NCBI GenBank assembly: GCA_965242865.1
Contig: CBDETK010000013.1
Coordinates: forward strand, 448,001-512,000
DNA length: 64,000 bases
Source: Candidatus Latescibacterota bacterium
GTDB lineage: Bacteria > Latescibacterota > UBA2968 > UBA8231
Reading direction: 5' to 3'
In this document: positions 38,949 to 45,424 of the stretch, one piece after another
Layout of the letters: each line of letters opens with the position of its first letter
Numbering within the stretch: the stretch's first letter is position 1
Position numbers and translations under genes: made by a program
Notes under the pieces: generated by a model
The model's input: only the letters and a program-made list of their open reading frames with translations
What the model was told of the DNA's origin: nothing
Database searches by the model: none

Positions 38949-39836
38949 GTGAAAAAGCGCAGCCGCGAGCTCAACATCTTTAGCATGTCCGCGCTCGACC
39001 TGTTCGCCTCGGCTCTCGGTGCCTTCATCCTCATTACCATCGTGCTGCTGCCCTTTTTTCCGAATCTAAATCTGTCGGGGCATGAAAAGGCCGAGTTGGA
39101 GCAGGCCAAGGCCGAGTTGGAGCAGGCCAAGGCCGAGCTAGAAAAAGAAAAAGCCAAGCAGGCCAAGCTGGCGAGAGAGAAGGCCAGATTAGAGCGCGAG
39201 AAAGCCGAGCTGGAGCGGGCCAAGGCCAAAGCCCCGAAAACAAAAAGTCAGCTCGAAAAACGGGTGGAGGCTTTGCAACAGGAGATCGACGACACCACCG
39301 TTTTATTGGGCATTAAGACCAAGGCGAAAAAGTTCGCGTTTGTCATAGACATGTCGGGCAGCATTTACCAGCCATCGCACAACGATTATCGCCCGTTCAT
39401 AACATTATCCATCCAAGACATGCTCGCGGCCTTTACGTCGGAAATAGAGGTCTGTCTCATTGGTTTTCAAGGCTCGAATACGTTGCACTATTGGCCGCAA
39501 AGCAGAGGGTACTTTCAGGTAAAAAAGAATACGCGCAATCGCGTGGTCAAACAGGTGGAACGCTGGATGAGCTTGGTGAATGGCGGCACGCCCACGCGCA
39601 CCGCTTTGCTGGCGGCGATTGCATTGCACCCCGAAGAGATCATCCTATTGAGCGATGGCGCTCCCTCAGAGGATTGGAGCATGGTCGTGCGGGCTGTGAC
39701 GGCAGAAAACAGGCGGCGCATACCCATCCACGCCGTAGCCGTTGGTCATTACACGGCAGACCGGAACTTTATTGATTTTTTAGTGCAGCTAACCAAGCGG
39801 AACAAGGGGTATGTCGTGGGAGCTAAACCGGGTTGA
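38949..39836 (+). CDS. Membrane-anchored coiled-coil VWA-domain protein
   Basis: N-terminal TM (SALDLFASALGAFILITIVLL), AELEQAK heptads (21-bp repeat), MIDAS DMSGS...GGT...LLSDG. Confidence 0.85.
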   Translation: MKKRSRELNIFSMSALDLFASALGAFILITIVLLPFFPNLNLSGHEKAELEQAKAELEQAKAELEKEKAKQAKLAREKARLEREKAELERAKAKAPKTKSQLEKRVEALQQEIDDTTVLLGIKTKAKKFAFVIDMSGSIYQPSHNDYRPFITLSIQDMLAAFTSEIEVCLIGFQGSNTLHYWPQSRGYFQVKKNTRNRVVKQVERWMSLVNGGTPTRTALLAAIALHPEEIILLSDGAPSEDWSMVVRAVTAENRRRIPIHAVAVGHYTADRNFIDFLVQLTKRNKGYVVGAKPG

Positions 39837-39849
39837 TATAGCAATCTTT

Positions 39850-40598
39850 CCGCACGGTGCCCCGTCCGCCCCGGATCGAGCGATACCCCTGCTGTCGTCC
39901 ACTGTCGTTCGCCCAAGGGGCGAGGCCGACCCGCGCGGTCACCTTTTTGCCGCTCCACTGGCCTAATTCCGGCAGATACCCCACCAGCGTCGCCGCGGTC
40001 CGCTCGCCGACGCCCGGTACACTCTGGTATAGGGCCGCCGACGCGGCCAGCGAGCCGTTGTTTTTCAACGCCGCCCGGTGGGCTTCCTCCACCTGTGCAA
40101 TCTCTTCGTCGAGCCACTGGAGATGTCGCTCAATGGAGGTGCGGGCCTCTTCGGTCGGCCCTTTGTCCAGCCGCTGGTGCTCCTGCACCCGCTGTTGAAC
40201 CAACGGCTTACGCCGGCGCAGCAGGTCTTGGAGTTCCTCCCGATCGGCTTCCTTGGCCAACGGGCGCGGCATCGGGAAGACCGCCCCATACCGCGCCAGC
40301 ATATCCGGGCGTCCAAAGCGTCGGTCTTGGCCTGGTGACCGGCTGCCCGCACGAAGCGGCGCACGCGATTGGGGTGTGCTACGTGGACCGCCACCCCCAT
40401 GCGCTGCAACCACCGCACCGCCGCCCGCTCATAGCCCCCCGTCGGTTCGCACACCACCTCGGTCGCCCCCTGACGGGTCAACCATGCCCCCAAAACCGCA
40501 AAGCCCGTGGGGGTGTTCTCGAACCGACGCACCGGACCCGCCGACACCGACACGTCCAAACTCCTCTTGCCTACATCCATACCGGCAATGACTTTCAT
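39850..40598 (-). pseudogene. IS110 recombinase, frameshifted and C-terminally truncated
   Basis: GMDVGK, VCEPTG, KTDALDA (DEDD) in one frame; SVPGVG, NDSG..G..SIRGGR in another; extra AT near 40303 (CGG-AT-ATG-CTG). Confidence 0.88.
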
Positions 40599-40624
40599 AC
40601 GAATAGCCTCCTGGTTATAATGAT

Positions 40625-40810
40625 GCTGTCCTCCACACTTGTAATGCGGGCCTTGGGCCCCTGTATCCGTTCGGAGCGACAACAGGATGGCCGGGTGAGG
40701 GGTGTCGTACTCCCGCACGGTGCCGCTGTCCACACGGACCGCGCACCCAATGACGCACGACGCGCCCCTCACCCGGCCCCTCAGAGTGGCCAAGCGGAAA
40801 CCCGGCCGCA
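40625..40810 (-). ncRNA. Putative IS110 bridge RNA
   Basis: 5' hairpin (40788-40807), a large loop closed by a 14-bp perfect stem (40689-40702/40765-40778), and a second loop CTCC...GGAG (40631-40676) with an inner GGGCC hairpin and TACAAG. Confidence 0.7.
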
Positions 40811-40817
40811 ACATACA

Positions 40818-40880
40818 AATGACCCTTAGAGTAGTCAGGCAAGACGAGACAAAAGCAACATGAGTGTTAAGAACGCTTCT
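40818..40880 (+). repeat. Duplicated intergenic segment (copy at 48081-48143)
   Basis: AATGACC.TAGAG..GTCAGGCAAGACGAG.CAAAAGCAA.ATGAGTGTTAAGAACGCTTCT at both sites. Confidence 0.85.
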
Positions 40881-40963: not shown

Positions 40964-43060
40964 GTGTTGAAACTCGCCGTTGTTGCCGGCTTTATGGTAT
41001 GGAGTAGCCCGGCGGCGATCCGGTGGGACTTCGACGGAGAGACGACGCAAGGATGGGCGGCTAAAAAGAGCATCTCATCCGGTGGCCGGCACGTCTTTCA
41101 CCTATTGGCCAGTGAGGTCAAAGACAGCGTGTGGGTGATCGAGCCCTTTCGCTCGGATGACCACAATCCGAGTGTCGAAGTGATTTCTCCGACGATAGAC
41201 TACGATTCGCGTCTTTTCGACCGGGTGCGAGTGCGATTTCGGATCGCACATCATCGCCCTGCGTTGGGTTCCTTAGCCCTGCGCTGGACGAATCAACACA
41301 ACCGTACTTCTCCGGGTAGGGATCCTGAGCCATCGAAAGGTCGGTTTGGGATTCTCGTACAAGGCGACTTCGTTTATACGACCGAGTGGCAAGAAGTAGA
41401 AATTGACCTTGCCAGTCATCGCAAGGCTCTGTGGGATGGTATGTTACGGGATATTCGGCTGAGTTTTTCCTTGGATCGAGGTGAAACAGGAGTGCCCCGG
41501 CCGGCCGAGGAAAAAGTTGGCCGCTTGGCGATTGATTGGATTGAGTTGACCGGCGTGGAAGAGATCGTACAGGGGGAACTACCGCCGCCTCAAGCCGAGT
41601 ATTTTCGCTTTGAAGGAGGTCAGTACTTTGCTCAGCCAGTCTTTCTTCCTATTGTGCTAGGTTTAGGGGGGTTCTTCGTCTTCGATAGGGCTAGCGTTTT
41701 AACGGACTTGGATAGCGATGGCGACTTAGACCTTTTTTCTGCTTGGGAGGATACCCCACCGAGGAAGTGGCCTATCTCCGGTTGGGTTATGGCCCACAAC
41801 GACGGTAAGGGGTCCCTTGAGCCTGTACTCACAGCGGAGACGCCGGTCTCACCAAGGGTACACGCCGGCGATTTGACCGGCGATGGCCAAGACGAGATTG
41901 TGCTGGCTGGTTGGCCTGACATAGCAGTTGTGTCTATGGGATCAGACCTCGAGACCGAGGAGCTCGTGCAGATAAGCGATCGCTTATTTAAGGGCCTAGC
42001 GGATTGGGATGGTGACGGCGATGTCGAACTCTTTTCCACAGCACTCGAATACGATTCAAACGGATATCCAGCAGACGGAGAGGCCCATTTTGAAGTATGG
42101 GATGTAGCAAACGGGGTGTGGTCGGCTGCGCAATTGGCAAAACCTGAAAACGGCCCCCTCTACCTCTATCAGATCGGCGACCTTACCGGCAATGGGATGC
42201 TGGAGGGTCTATGGATGTCGGGCTTCGGCGACGCATCCACTTGGCAGGTGACTCGCTTGGGCGAAGTGCTCGTGGCGGGCGAACCATTGGCCTTTGAGTC
42301 GGGTGGTTGGCCTCTTTTTTTACAAGGGAACGATGTGGATGACGATGGGCAGGTAGAGTTGCTGACGGCCCTGCGCTACGACGGTGCTGAACAACGCAAG
42401 GGACTGGTTGTACAGAGCAGCCGCCCCGGCGGTGTTGTAGAGACGGAGGTGTTGTATGATGAGCGGCTGTTTTTGCGCTCGCCGGTGGTGGTGGGCGACT
42501 TAAATGCCGATGGGGTTGAGGACTGGGCGTTTGTCGGCGGCGATCGTGCGTCGGGCTTTGGGGTGTTCGTCGAATGGGGCGGAGGCGTGACCCCAACAGA
42601 AGACGTGGAAACGCATCGCTTAGAGGGCGATGGGGTACAGGTACTGCCGGGCGATATCGATGGCGACGGCGATGTCGATTTGGTGGTGTTGGATCCGGTC
42701 TTGGGCGGTGTGCATCTGCTCAAGAGTTCGCTGAGCGATCCGCTAACAGCGGTGCTAACGCCGACGGCAGCGCGACCGGCGCAATATCGGCTGGGCGACA
42801 GCTATCCCAACCCGTTCAATCCGGCGGTGGTGTTGCCGCTTGATTTGGCAACGGACGCGGCGAGCGTGTCGCTGACCGTGTACGACGTGTTGGGTCGTCG
42901 GGTGCGGCAGGTGTGGGACGGGCCGCTGGGGGCGGGGAGCCATCGGTTTACTTGGGATGGCCGCGACGAGGCGGGTAAGGCCGTGGCCGCGGGCGTGTAT
43001 ATCTATCGCGTCGAGATGGACGGGCGAGTCGAAGCGAAAAAGACGACGAAGCTGCCTTAG
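40964..43060 (+). CDS. Secreted FG-GAP/VCBS-repeat protein with C-terminal FlgD-Ig/T9SS-type domain (paralogue 1)
   Basis: Signal peptide; repeated DLDSDGDLDL/GDLTGDGQDEI/DIDGDGDVDL motifs; C-terminal SYPNPFNP...YDVLGRRVR...WDGRDEAG...GVYIYR. Confidence 0.85.
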   Translation: MLKLAVVAGFMVWSSPAAIRWDFDGETTQGWAAKKSISSGGRHVFHLLASEVKDSVWVIEPFRSDDHNPSVEVISPTIDYDSRLFDRVRVRFRIAHHRPALGSLALRWTNQHNRTSPGRDPEPSKGRFGILVQGDFVYTTEWQEVEIDLASHRKALWDGMLRDIRLSFSLDRGETGVPRPAEEKVGRLAIDWIELTGVEEIVQGELPPPQAEYFRFEGGQYFAQPVFLPIVLGLGGFFVFDRASVLTDLDSDGDLDLFSAWEDTPPRKWPISGWVMAHNDGKGSLEPVLTAETPVSPRVHAGDLTGDGQDEIVLAGWPDIAVVSMGSDLETEELVQISDRLFKGLADWDGDGDVELFSTALEYDSNGYPADGEAHFEVWDVANGVWSAAQLAKPENGPLYLYQIGDLTGNGMLEGLWMSGFGDASTWQVTRLGEVLVAGEPLAFESGGWPLFLQGNDVDDDGQVELLTALRYDGAEQRKGLVVQSSRPGGVVETEVLYDERLFLRSPVVVGDLNADGVEDWAFVGGDRASGFGVFVEWGGGVTPTEDVETHRLEGDGVQVLPGDIDGDGDVDLVVLDPVLGGVHLLKSSLSDPLTAVLTPTAARPAQYRLGDSYPNPFNPAVVLPLDLATDAASVSLTVYDVLGRRVRQVWDGPLGAGSHRFTWDGRDEAGKAVAAGVYIYRVEMDGRVEAKKTTKLP

Positions 43061-43179: not shown

Positions 43180-43206
43180 GTCATTCCCGCAACAGCGGGA
43201 ATCCAG
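43180..43206. repeat. REP-like palindrome
   Basis: GTCATTCCCGC-AACA-GCGGGAATCCAG hairpin in an intergenic region. Confidence 0.7.
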
Positions 43207-43243: not shown

Positions 43244-45424
43244 GTGTTGCTCATTTTCTTATGTGCAGGGATGGTGCTGTTGAGTAGCCCGGCGATGGCG
43301 ATCCGGTGGAATTTTGACGACGGGACGACCCAAGGATGGGGTGCCAAGAAACCTGGTAGTGCCGGGGGGGATCATCAATTTTACCCGTTGTCTGGGACGG
43401 TCGAAGCGGGGGTATGGCGGATTAGTGCCTTTCGCACCGATGGCCTCAGCGGATCCGGGGCCACCTTGATTTCTCCGACGATAGGCCATGATTCGCACCT
43501 TTTTGACCGAGTGCGAGTGCGGTTCCGCACAGTCCATCCCAGTCCGACGACCGGAGCCCTAATCCTCCTATGGACCAATGAGCATAACCTCATGTTTCCG
43601 GGAAATGACCCCTTACTAGGAAGGGGGCGATTTTCTCTTTCCGCAAACGGGACCTACGGCGAGTTGTTATACACGACCGAATGGCAGGAGTTCGAGTTTT
43701 CGTTGACCGACATGGAGGAGAACTCCTTTGGGTACTATCCCTTATGGGCGGGGCTGTTAGATGATATTCGACTGGATTTTGTCGTGGAGTTTATGATGGG
43801 ATCGCAGCCGGATCGCCCCGCTTCGACGAAGGTGTCGGCGTTGGAAGTGGATTGGATTGAGTTGACCGGGGTGGAAGAGGTGTTACAGGGCGAATTGCCT
43901 CGGCCGCCGGTGTTCGATATAGGCGTTGGAGGGCCGAAGGTTTTCGCGCCGCCGGTGTTCTACCCGATTGCGCCGGGCTTAGGCTTATTTCGTCTTTTAG
44001 GCGACGCCCAACAAGGGGTCTTGGCCGACTTGGATGGGGATGGTGACCTCGATTTGTGCTCCTTCTTCTGGTTGCTAGAGGAGCGCCTCGGCGGCTGGGT
44101 CATAGCGCGCAACGACGGGATGGGGGCGTTTGAAACCGTCCGCGTCGAGCCGGTGGACGACTTCGCGTATTATCCGAGGCTGTCTGTCGGCGATGTGACC
44201 GGCGATGGTCGCGCCGAACTGGTGCGGAGTCTCGAACGGTCGGACCTCGGGGTTTGGTCGGTCGGCTCGGAGTTCCAGTTGGAGCTCCTCGTGCAGAAGC
44301 CCAATCGTCGGTTGGTGGATTTAGCCGATTGGGATGGCGATGGGATGCTGGAAGTGTTTGCCCAACCTGTGGACGAGGACGAATCGTTTTTGGAAGGGTG
44401 GGACCTCGTAAACGGCGAGTGGACGTTCTCCGAGTGGCCGGTGCCCGCCTCGGCCTCCGGGCTGTCGTGGGCGCATCAGATCGGCGACTTTACCGGCGAT
44501 GGGACGCTGGAAGTGCTGTGGGGACCGCCCGCTTTTTGGGAGCCGGAGCTGTTTGAACAAGCCATCTCGTTGCGCGTGGCAGGCTTCGGGGCTGATCCGA
44601 CACAGGGGGTGCTGTTTGAAAGGGTCATGCCGCTTTCTCTCCTCGCGGGTCGAGCCGGCGATTTCGACAGCGATGGGCAGGTGGACTTGCTGGCCGGCTT
44701 CCGCGAGGACTTCCAAGAGCAGCGCAAGGGCTTGGCCGTGTGGAGCAGCCGTCCCGATGGCTTAACGCAAGAGGTGCTCTATGATGAGTATCTGTTCCTG
44801 CGCTCGTCGGTGGTGGTGCGCGATCTGAATGCCGATGGCTTGGACGATTGGGTGTTCGTCGGCGGGGACTATGCGTTGGGTTTTGGCGTGTTCGTCGCAT
44901 GGGGTGGCGGCTTGCATCCGAATAGAGCGGTGGAATGGCATCGCTTGGCTGGCGATGGGGTCGAGGGGGCTGTGCCGACGGGACTGGAGGGAAATGGCGT
45001 GGCAGTGCTGCCCGGGGACGTGGACAGCGATGGCGATGTGGATTTGGTGGTGTTGGATCATGCCTTAGGGGGCGTCCATGTGCTCAAGAATCCGCTGGGC
45101 GGGCAGATGACCGCGGTGTTGACGCCGGCGGCAGCGCGCCCGGCGCAACATCGGCTGGGCGACAGCTATCCCAATCCGTTCAATCCGGCGGTGGTGCTGC
45201 CGCTCGATTTGGCCGAGGACGCAGTGGAGGTATCGCTACGGGTACATGACGTGTTGGGTCGTCGGGTGCGTCAGGTGTGGGACGGGCCGCTGCGGGCGGG
45301 GAGCCATCGGTTTACTTGGGATGGCCGCGACGAGGCAGGTAAAGATGTGGCCGCGGGCGTGTATATCTATCGGGTCGAGATGGACAGACAGGTGGAAGCA
45401 AAAAAGACGACCAAGCTGCCGTGA
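43244..45424 (+). CDS. Secreted FG-GAP/FlgD-domain protein (paralogue 2)
   Basis: Same architecture as paralogue 1; AGGAGG RBS and GTG start. Confidence 0.85.
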   Translation: MLLIFLCAGMVLLSSPAMAIRWNFDDGTTQGWGAKKPGSAGGDHQFYPLSGTVEAGVWRISAFRTDGLSGSGATLISPTIGHDSHLFDRVRVRFRTVHPSPTTGALILLWTNEHNLMFPGNDPLLGRGRFSLSANGTYGELLYTTEWQEFEFSLTDMEENSFGYYPLWAGLLDDIRLDFVVEFMMGSQPDRPASTKVSALEVDWIELTGVEEVLQGELPRPPVFDIGVGGPKVFAPPVFYPIAPGLGLFRLLGDAQQGVLADLDGDGDLDLCSFFWLLEERLGGWVIARNDGMGAFETVRVEPVDDFAYYPRLSVGDVTGDGRAELVRSLERSDLGVWSVGSEFQLELLVQKPNRRLVDLADWDGDGMLEVFAQPVDEDESFLEGWDLVNGEWTFSEWPVPASASGLSWAHQIGDFTGDGTLEVLWGPPAFWEPELFEQAISLRVAGFGADPTQGVLFERVMPLSLLAGRAGDFDSDGQVDLLAGFREDFQEQRKGLAVWSSRPDGLTQEVLYDEYLFLRSSVVVRDLNADGLDDWVFVGGDYALGFGVFVAWGGGLHPNRAVEWHRLAGDGVEGAVPTGLEGNGVAVLPGDVDSDGDVDLVVLDHALGGVHVLKNPLGGQMTAVLTPAAARPAQHRLGDSYPNPFNPAVVLPLDLAEDAVEVSLRVHDVLGRRVRQVWDGPLRAGSHRFTWDGRDEAGKDVAAGVYIYRVEMDRQVEAKKTTKLP

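Follow-up and report, generated by a model that had tools for sequence, protein, structure and literature searches.

We report here that a 64,000-nt stretch of a Candidatus Latescibacterota genome (assembly GCA_965242865.1, contig CBDETK010000013.1, positions 448,001 to 512,000; hereafter the window, with coordinates counted from its first base) carries on its minus strand, at 39847–40817, a decayed insertion sequence of the IS110 group whose right end is absent. The left end of this copy, 219 nt from the initial TGTATG to the base before the recombinase ATG (40599–40817, minus strand), was recognized by homology to the left ends of intact relatives. It is very probably the surviving end of a dead, IS621-like element that still encodes an intact-looking bridge RNA, in a family that reads a repetitive extragenic palindromic (REP) element and that has TT as the core dinucleotide of the target and CT as that of the element. 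The system is of a known, IS621-like kind; what is new is a cross-phylum family with an unequal core. Four observations carry this account: the homology among left ends, a fold that is conserved across them, the covariation of guides with flanks, and the pattern of bases at the two junctions.

Relatives of the recombinase and the fold of the RNA

A protein search of 61 related genomes gave matches in seven, the window's own genome included, and a scan of one genome per species gave 26 loci (loci and genomes are referred to below by L and G numbers where they need to be told apart). Identity to the query at these 26 loci is 77–100% in Latescibacterota, 62–63% in two Chloroflexota genomes, and 59–60% in one Binatia, with a few fragments besides. 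Intact relatives of ∼1.2 kb are found in other Latescibacterota, in Chloroflexota, in Binatia and in metagenomes, and two copies within one genome have exactly 1208 bp in common. Their left junction reads ..GTCATT^TGTATG... (^ marks the junction) and their right junction ..AACACAGATA-CT^CC(C/G)GC-loop-GC(G/C)GGAATCCAG. The 313-aa protein of one intact relative (L011) matches both PF01548 (E = 1.2e-21) and PF02371 (E = 1.1e-15), which is to say the DEDD and Tnp domains together, and both halves are also found in the two frames of the window copy. Over its whole length an intact relative matches the solved bridge recombinases ISCro4 (9t56, E = 5e-40) and IS621 (8wt6, E = 2e-35). GIDV, ES/ATxxY, KTDAxDA, and the serine in ..DSG../..ESG.. 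line up in the ISCro4 alignment, and the catalytic residues may be among them.

Against plasmids, tblastn gave as best matches 41% identical entries named 'IS110 family transposase', and no named close relative. When the left end was searched as DNA in 40 further genomes of the family, no match appeared outside the window's genome, and blastn of a relative's whole element against complete Escherichia coli genomes gave none. The same genus also holds a second IS110-group family (L014, L015, and L019; genomes G002, G013, and G014), its protein 42% identical, with CT at both junctions and a different GC-rich palindromic repeat around them (..GGGGCAACC-CT^TGTATG.. and ..CAGTTG-CT^TGGGGGCGCCC).

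The 232-nt stretch that we folded reaches −112.3 kcal/mol (z = −3.59), a stability matched by none of 200 shuffles. Its minimum-energy structure consists of a 5′ hairpin (GGCCGGGT/GCTTGGCC, 40788–40807) followed by two modules, each a stem with an internal loop, all on the minus strand. The first, the target-binding loop module (40689–40778), has an outer stem, an internal loop, and an inner stem; it is drawn from the minimum-energy fold together with consensus helices 2–5, and its closing stem pairs GGCCGGGTGAGGGG (40765–40778) with CCCCTCACCCGGCC (40689–40702). The second, the donor-binding loop module (40628–40680), corresponds to consensus helices 6–7 and has a stem GTCGCTCC/GGAGGAC, an internal loop, and an inner stem GGGC/GCCC.

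The consensus comes from an alignment of 22 non-identical left ends, four from the window's own genome, six from other Latescibacterota, two from Chloroflexota, one from Binatia, and nine from metagenomes. The metagenome loci had been caught with the pattern of the conserved donor-loop stem, which gave 57, of which 20 were true left ends by eye and the rest chance. RNAalifold finds 38 consensus pairs in seven helices: the 5′ hairpin; three stems (outer, middle, and inner) round one internal loop; and two stems (outer and inner) round a second. Changes on both sides that keep the pairing occur in 18 of the 38 pairs. Paired cells amount to 95.0% as compared to 84.4% in shuffled alignments, none of 500 shuffles reaching 95.0%, and sliding the partners by one to three columns reduces the figure to 46–52%. 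A 5′ hairpin and two stem-and-loop modules are thus maintained by compensatory change across the family. The donor-loop helices 6 and 7 hardly vary from one left end to another, and are therefore supported by conservation and not by covariation. The RNA gene of the window copy keeps all 56 invariant columns of the alignment.

Rfam 15 holds no matching family; its five matches, to microRNA, lncRNA, and snoRNA models, all fall far below their gathering scores, and we took them as chance. In intact relatives the left end is ∼216–225 nt long and the right end reaches ∼25–45 nt past the stop codon, so that the noncoding left end much exceeds the right end; this is the arrangement that Durrant 2024 gives for the IS110 group, the reverse applying to the IS1111 group.

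Guides, insertion sites and the unequal core

We took four guides from fixed columns of the alignment, following the geometry of Durrant 2024. The left target guide of the window copy, TGCGTCATT (40749–40757, minus strand; GCGTCATT at 40749–40756), runs in the same sense as the left target arm and the core, and would therefore pair with the bottom strand. The right target guide, GTGCGGGAG (40710–40718, minus strand; GCGGGAG at 40710–40716), pairs through GCGGG with CCCGC, while its final AG reads a CT core. The left donor guide, ACGGATACA (40662–40670, minus strand), matches right-end remnants ...ACGGATA-CT elsewhere in the same genome, and the right donor guide, CATTACAAG (40638–40646, minus strand), contains TACAAG, complementary to CT + TGTA, that is, to the donor core and the first bases of the left end.

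These matches move together with the insertion sites. The nine bases of the left target guide that end at column 77 match the copy's own left flank at four to nine of nine positions. With one copy taken per distinct guide 7-mer (10 classes), 42 of 50 noncore positions equal the own left flank, the mean match to the flanks of other classes being 2.48 of 5, and none of 20000 shuffles reaches 42. Among the metagenome copies, for example, guide UUCACCACU stands at flank ..ACACCACT, guide UGGGACACU at ..TGGGACACT, and guide UAGGCAACU at ..CAGGCAACT. On the other side of the loop, right target guide GCGGG-AG goes with CT-CCCGC (Latescibacterota and Binatia), GCCGG-AG with CT-CCGGC (Chloroflexota), ACGAC-AG with CT-GTCGT (L098), and CGAAC-AG with CT-GTTCG (L119/L108); all five arm positions pair in eight of the 10 tabulated rows, and in L119/L108 in addition.

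The sides of the second loop match the element ends in like manner. Left donor guide ACAGAUAC goes with right ends ..ACAGATA-CT and ACGGAUAC with ..ACGGATA-CT (L098, L119, and L140); the window's ACGGAUAC fits two of the three right-end remnants of its own genome. Positions 1–8 of this guide equal the right end in most lineages, position 3 covarying with it (A with A, G with G). In the right donor guide, ..ACAAG or ..GCAAG complements CT together with the first left-end bases. The two bases that follow each AG (UA, UG) fit positions 6–7 of the other partner's top strand, as in the handshake-guide concept of Hiraizumi 2024; in the window copy the handshake position of the target loop, assigned by position only, is TA at 40708–40709 (minus strand), complementary to positions 6–7 (TA) of the element right end. 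Chance as the origin of the loop matches was considered and rejected on the shuffles of both fold pairing and guide–flank matching.

Together the guides of the first loop specify GTCATTCCCGC, which is present at 43180–43190 on the plus strand within an unoccupied and intact REP, GTCATTCCCGC-AACA-GCGGGAATCCAG (43180–43206, plus strand), recognized by counting 11-mers in the genome and by reading the sequence. GTCATTCCCGC occurs 89 times in the 6.0-Mb assembly as compared to 4.2 expected, ranking 451st among 2.95 million distinct 11-mers, and GCGGGAATCCAG 125 times as compared to 1.3. Nearly always GTCATTCCCGC lies within GTCATTCCCGC-N4-GCGGGAATCCAG or a longer variant that holds a second hairpin, and the 40 REP contexts listed are repeat-flanked. 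The unit is therefore a short imperfect palindrome, highly repeated, and, in the 43180 copy for which we checked the position, intergenic, between two genes. The same site with a CT core, GTCACTCCCGC, occurs 0 times in the own genome, 6.5 being expected.

A preliminary description of this stretch had proposed much of the above from the letters alone, and most of it holds. It had placed a bridge RNA of an IS110-group element on the minus strand upstream of the recombinase, with the three-part layout of IS621, and the homology to intact relatives and the consensus of 22 left ends bear this out. What it said of the sequence, on the 5′ hairpin, the closing stem, and the two target guide segments among other things, agrees throughout with the minus strand, and the fold proved stable. 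It had matched the first-loop guides to the REP arm in the window, read the junction as GGTCATT^TGTATG (the element starting at 40817), and assigned TACAAG of the second loop to the element end, all as we find them. It would have been overturned by relatives inserting in unrelated sequences or by guides that fail to covary with targets; other copies share the insertion sequence, and among relatives the guides do covary with their targets. Its judgment that the copy is inactive agrees with a 2-nt insertion in the recombinase, the loss of similarity near 39847, and the breakage of both PF01548 matches in the genome, taken up below.

Several points weigh against this account. In genome G008 the guide fits its own left flank in only two of four copies: the two agree in L020 (GUGGAU at flank GTGGAT) and in L145 (GUGGUU at flank GTGGATT), and are swapped between L013 (GUGGAU at flank GTCATT) and L022 (GUCAUU at flank GTGGAT). 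The variant flank represents the palindrome's other arm, as in unoccupied sites ..GGTGGATTCCCGC.., and the swap would be explained by the RNA of a co-resident copy acting in trans, or by recombination between copies. Moreover, the right flank of L022 is one T shorter than a conservative exchange predicts, that of L140 reads CTATG.. where the guide predicts ATACG, the right end of L114 is odd, L098 has guide UU at flank CT, and in the Binatia copies the last base of the left target guide is A where the flank has T. The left donor guide never has a complementary last base, and its third base is mismatched in L031 and in the G008 copies. Finally, the 5′ hairpin of the window copy itself deviates from the consensus stem of the family.

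The junctions reveal a regularity of another kind. Among 26 full-length insertions that could be parsed with both junctions, the left and right core dinucleotides are TT/CT in 21, CT/CT in three (sister metagenome lineages), AT/CT in one, and CT/CA in one, and none has CT on the left with TT on the right; four that the parse missed (L011, L016, L043, and L105) are by eye also TT/CT. Over all loci there are 42 distinct left junctions, of which 37 have TT, three CT (in lineages with other targets), and two AT (G008); the hexamer GTCATT stands 5′ of all eight left ends in the own genome and at 37 of the 42. The right junction (GATA-CT-CCCGC) has CT in 29 of 34 right-end contexts caught by a regular expression; four of the other five lie away from an element end and the fifth is L114, and none of the five is a right junction of the family with TT. 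The right arm of the REP is untouched and has ..GGAAT, which implies ATTCC, with a T, as the lost partner, and the C at the right junction thus comes from the element. The two bottom-strand guides differ in their first core base, which is U in the left target guide and C in the left donor guide; the right target and right donor guides end in AG in all 22 left ends, in columns with little or no variation. TT is confined to the target, and the right end of the element and both top-strand guides keep CT; the cores are therefore unequal, and no TT core has been re-specified. A single CT core common to target and donor at both boundaries is thus not what the REP-targeting clade has, its target being TT. 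The preliminary description had named TT in place of CT as the core, which is right for the target and wrong for the element, and had expected intact copies at GTCA-TT-CCCGC; the left GTCATT and the right arm CCCGC are indeed found, but the right junction reads CT.

As to the choice of sites, in two Chloroflexota genomes the TT-type site CGTCACTCCGGC (24 + 70 copies) is as common as the CT-type site CGTCATTCCGGC (26 + 68), 94 against 94; all 10 insertions in these genomes read TT at the left junction, with the qualification that three of the four in one genome have the right arm CCAGC, outside both counted classes. Neither the copies of one genome nor related genomes can be taken as wholly independent, and the counts therefore overstate the number of events.

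By analogy with IS621 we infer a transcript, a circle, a chemistry, and final junctions that copy the top strand. A live element of ∼1.2 kb would leave as a circle, in which the joined right and left ends would rebuild a promoter that drives the RNA. Across the joined ends of 24 of the 26 parsed insertions we do find TTGACx (right end), a 17-nt spacer, and TATGTT (left-end bases 3–8), a promoter by consensus geometry only. The first loop of the RNA would read the REP, its 5′ side ..CGUCAUU having the sense of the left arm and core and its 3′ side GCGGG-AG being complementary to the core and the right arm CCCGC; the second would read the joined element ends, with ACGGAUAC for the right end and UACAAG for CT + TGTA. 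The DEDD/serine recombinase would swap strands just past the second core base. G pairs with C and wobbles with T; the bottom-strand guides would encode the core difference, and the top-strand G would wobble with the T of the target before the exchange and pair with C after it.

On a further reading, the equal-core rule fails in nature in this clade, and an unequal core seems to be preferred there, not just tolerated. The natural copies look as if copied from the exchanged top strand, since their junctions are TT-left and CT-right and never the reverse; this is the outcome to be expected from top-strand models (copy-out, single-strand transfer), and not from random segregation of a mismatched Holliday-junction product. 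We regard this reading as a serious possibility, though somewhat less than probable.

Its main competitor is a crossover of one base. The T at the second core position is the only one common to GTCAT[T]CCCGC and GATAC[T]TGTATG, and if the crossover lay there, the first position would belong to the arms, both strands would be exchanged without mismatch, and the pattern would be silent on which strand is copied. The bottom-strand guides do differ at the first position (U and C), as they do at arm positions, and in G008 the junction shifts by one base with the register of the guide (GUGGAU with GTGGAT^TGTATG; GUGGUU with GTGGATT^TGTATG). Yet the top-strand guides keep AG in 22 of 22 left ends, as for a two-base CT core. 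Hiraizumi 2024, in the text available, places the top-strand cut of IS621 just past CT and the bottom-strand cut elsewhere, 'between tC9* and tC10*', and suggests that mismatched nucleotides are perhaps excised and repaired. In the 11-bp IS621 target as given by Durrant 2024, the only bottom-strand CC step is that opposite G5–G6. If that step is the bottom-strand cut, then, on our own reading, the IS621 heteroduplex would lie at positions 6–9, and natural IS621 junctions would already be top-strand products. Where the bottom strand is cut in the present family cannot be placed from sequence. The TT/CT pattern as such would fit top-strand copying and a one-base crossover equally, and sequence cannot separate them; we consider the one-base crossover unlikely, but well worth keeping in view.

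That the core was re-specified from CT to TT in target and element alike, which was the version of the preliminary description, can scarcely be right: TT at 37 of 42 left junctions and the UU with which the left target guide ends in most copies would suit it, but it is already contradicted by the CT at the right junction of all 24 parsed rows with a TT or AT target, by the lack of a family TT junction in any of 34 right-end contexts (the sole TT row, L121, is a chance locus), by the AG that ends the right target and right donor guides in 22 of 22 left ends, and by the C of the left donor guide at that position.

Word searches of the literature turned up no account of target and donor cores that differ in nature, although elements of this type may already be shown by Durrant 2024 (Extended Data Fig. 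10c and supplementary tables). As far as such searches go, the unequal core of the whole clade, with T in the target and C in the donor, has no published description.

The window copy, its surroundings and remnants elsewhere

On the minus strand the left junction of the window copy reads ...GGGTCATT^TGTATGTTGC...; the six bases before it (40818–40823, minus strand) are the left half of the interrupted REP target, GTCA being the end of the left target arm and TT the target core. The recombinase ATG, at 40598, directly follows the left end, and the first 98 codons form the N-terminal RuvC-like (DEDD) part (40303–40598, minus strand; PF01548, E = 1.9e-13). A 2-nt insertion, AT at 40303–40304, is the frameshift, as comparison with four relatives indicates, and the remainder with the Tnp domain continues in the shifted frame (39847–40302, minus strand; PF02371, E = 2.2e-07). 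The protein is 71–76% identical to intact relatives over residues 1–156 of 159. Similarity stops after ...RGGRGTVRK near 39847, 11 nt from the stop codon of a convergent gene (39834–39836), with the loss of ∼60 codons and the entire right end.

The genome has eight matches to the element, every one preceded by GTCATT; among them are another decayed copy, fragments of the left end (208, ∼230, and 75 nt), and three pieces of 40 nt. An intact IS110-type recombinase was not found in the assembly, which is 93.6% complete, both of its PF01548 matches being broken copies. Because of the frameshift, the lost 3′ end and right end, and this lack of an intact recombinase, the window copy is, as far as its sequence tells, an inactive relic and an orphan.

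One may ask whether it nonetheless works in trans, its bridge RNA being made and serving a recombinase encoded elsewhere. In favor of this, the RNA gene keeps all 56 invariant columns, and the swapped guide–flank pairs of G008 are what trans action among co-resident copies is expected to leave. But no intact recombinase is at hand in the assembly; the right end that would supply the −35 part of the junction promoter is gone from the window copy; and a simple promoter scan found no minus-strand site upstream of the RNA, its single match being on the plus strand. We judge action in trans very improbable. Taken by itself, the window offers an ordinary finding, a REP that lies upstream of a gene and holds a dead insertion sequence.

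The flank that adjoins the element upstream recurs at other REPs of the genome. At 40964–43060 and 43244–45424 (plus strand) lie two tandem paralogous genes of ∼700 aa each, with a C-terminal ..GDSYPNPFNP.. tail common to both, and each has a REP or a REP remnant upstream. The commonest 11-mers of the genome, with up to 368 copies, are built on GGCCGCGGCC and belong to a different abundant repeat that is unrelated to the REP. REPs of the family GTCAYTCCSGC.. are abundant in three phyla, with 162 matches in G090, 296 in G091 (both Chloroflexota, in which all four Y/S combinations occur), and 547 in G092 (Binatia); the element family seems to move between phyla in the company of its target repeat. 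A clean empty site was not found; the one orthologous locus that was found (L158, in G022) lacks a whole REP-bearing module of ∼125–190 nt, and not the element alone. As compared with L158, the REP-bearing module at L011 (positions 920–2248) is flanked by a short direct repeat, ACTTAGT, and the REP-containing unit may itself be mobile.

Remnants of the element take several forms. At L005 (G000:C13:1172881-1172956) and L033 (∼1160–1260, Chloroflexota), the left end runs from its first base up to the guide-coding GTCATT and is joined there, with nothing between, to CCCGC or CCGGC, a REP right arm. The left half of the target is copied in the guide-coding DNA, and a deletion of this type restores a complete target site; it could stem from recombinase action on the internal half-site or from slippage between short repeats. 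Scars of 18–36 nt in REPs, with the first left-end bases joined at CT to the REP right arm, are found at different loci: G000:C13:5268133, 5334145, and 119345 (L006–L008), C13:3060904, and L148 in G008. L006–L008 have the same 33-nt piece, and one G008 piece also keeps the last true right-end bases. Such scars may be aberrant excisions or mobilized mini-elements. We rejected L006–L008 as true two-ended mini-elements, their right boundary ..TTGGCCA-CT being unlike the ..ACAGATA-CT of the family, and leave them as deletion products or unexplained. A further unit, 23 nt of a diverged left end, ∼25 nt, and a complete REP, is present in three copies (G000:C13:1142372, 2640424, and 4129343) and looks like a left-end fragment absorbed into a larger repeat.

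The identity of the guide-coding DNA to the left target arm, which led to the deletions joining the right arm at L005 and in the remnant upstream of L033, could also be turned against the guides. The protein alone might pick the REP, and the matches between loop and flank would then be by-products of a left end that carries a copied piece of its target, with two of four G008 copies misfitting their own guide. This is hardly credible: both sides of the loop shift with both flanks in independent lineages whose recombinases are 59–83% identical and whose donor ends are the same, the match sits in internal loops of a fold whose flanking stems have compensatory changes, and the same logic has been demonstrated by experiment, according to the available reports, for IS621 and ISPpu10.

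Comparison with known systems

In the systems described so far in the sources available to us, the two cores agree: IS621, ISPpu10, and ISCro4 have CT at both boundaries, and matching cores are a design rule (Hiraizumi 2026; ISPpu10 preprint; Perry 2025). As Durrant 2024 presents it, the core was changed to AT, GT, or TT only jointly in target, donor, and all guide positions; altered cores were less efficient, and longer pairing by the right guide, which amounts to 5–7 bp in the present family, improved efficiency. Bridge recombinases are in development as programmable tools for genome rearrangement, with design rules that keep the core fixed and equal (Perry 2025; Durrant 2024). A natural family, spread over three phyla, in which TT targets recombine with CT donors makes plain where in the guides the asymmetry resides, and its intact enzymes (e.g. 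L011 and L016) are on hand for asking whether unequal cores widen the choice of sites or favor insertion over excision. The one-base marker is also a simple probe of which strand is copied into the final product, a matter that preprints and structural papers, as far as their available texts go, answer differently.

A close parallel is IS621 of E. coli. Both have a two-domain DEDD/serine recombinase, a long left end and a short right end, and an RNA in which a 5′ hairpin is followed by one loop for the target and one for the donor. By the published accounts of IS621 the handshake positions after AG likewise fit positions 6–7 of the other partner, a promoter is likewise rebuilt across the joined ends (Durrant 2024), and REP elements are likewise the natural target. 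The present protein is only distantly related (E = 2e-35 to the IS621 chain), however, and the element has no DNA likeness to complete E. coli genomes; its right target guide pairs five to seven bases of the right arm as compared to two in IS621 (Durrant 2024); and its boundaries are TT on the left and CT on the right, whereas IS621 is given with CT at both (Hiraizumi 2026).

ISCro4 (IS622) of Citrobacter rodentium is the best match among solved structures (9t56, E = 5e-40, query residues 52–352) and, by the preprint of Perry 2025, has the same scheme of guides and handshake; its design rules want matching cores, whereas the family described here naturally recombines unequal ones. ISPpu10 of Pseudomonas putida, as a 2026 preprint describes it, inserts in one conserved REP family with a CT donor core and a bridge RNA of the IS621 logic, and tolerates G·T wobble at some guide positions; it differs in its host phylum and its REP, and the target stem-loop is stressed there as a second requirement.

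Closest to the question of strands are two preprints (2025–2026), on CazIS110-1 of Caloranaerobacter azorensis and on the IS621 'half-match', both of which, in the text available, argue for top-strand-only excision and insertion, or at least for a course mainly via the top strand. The TT-left and CT-right junctions of the present family fit that view. The preprints report bench results with equal cores, whereas ours is a natural junction pattern alone, for which a one-base crossover is an alternative reading.

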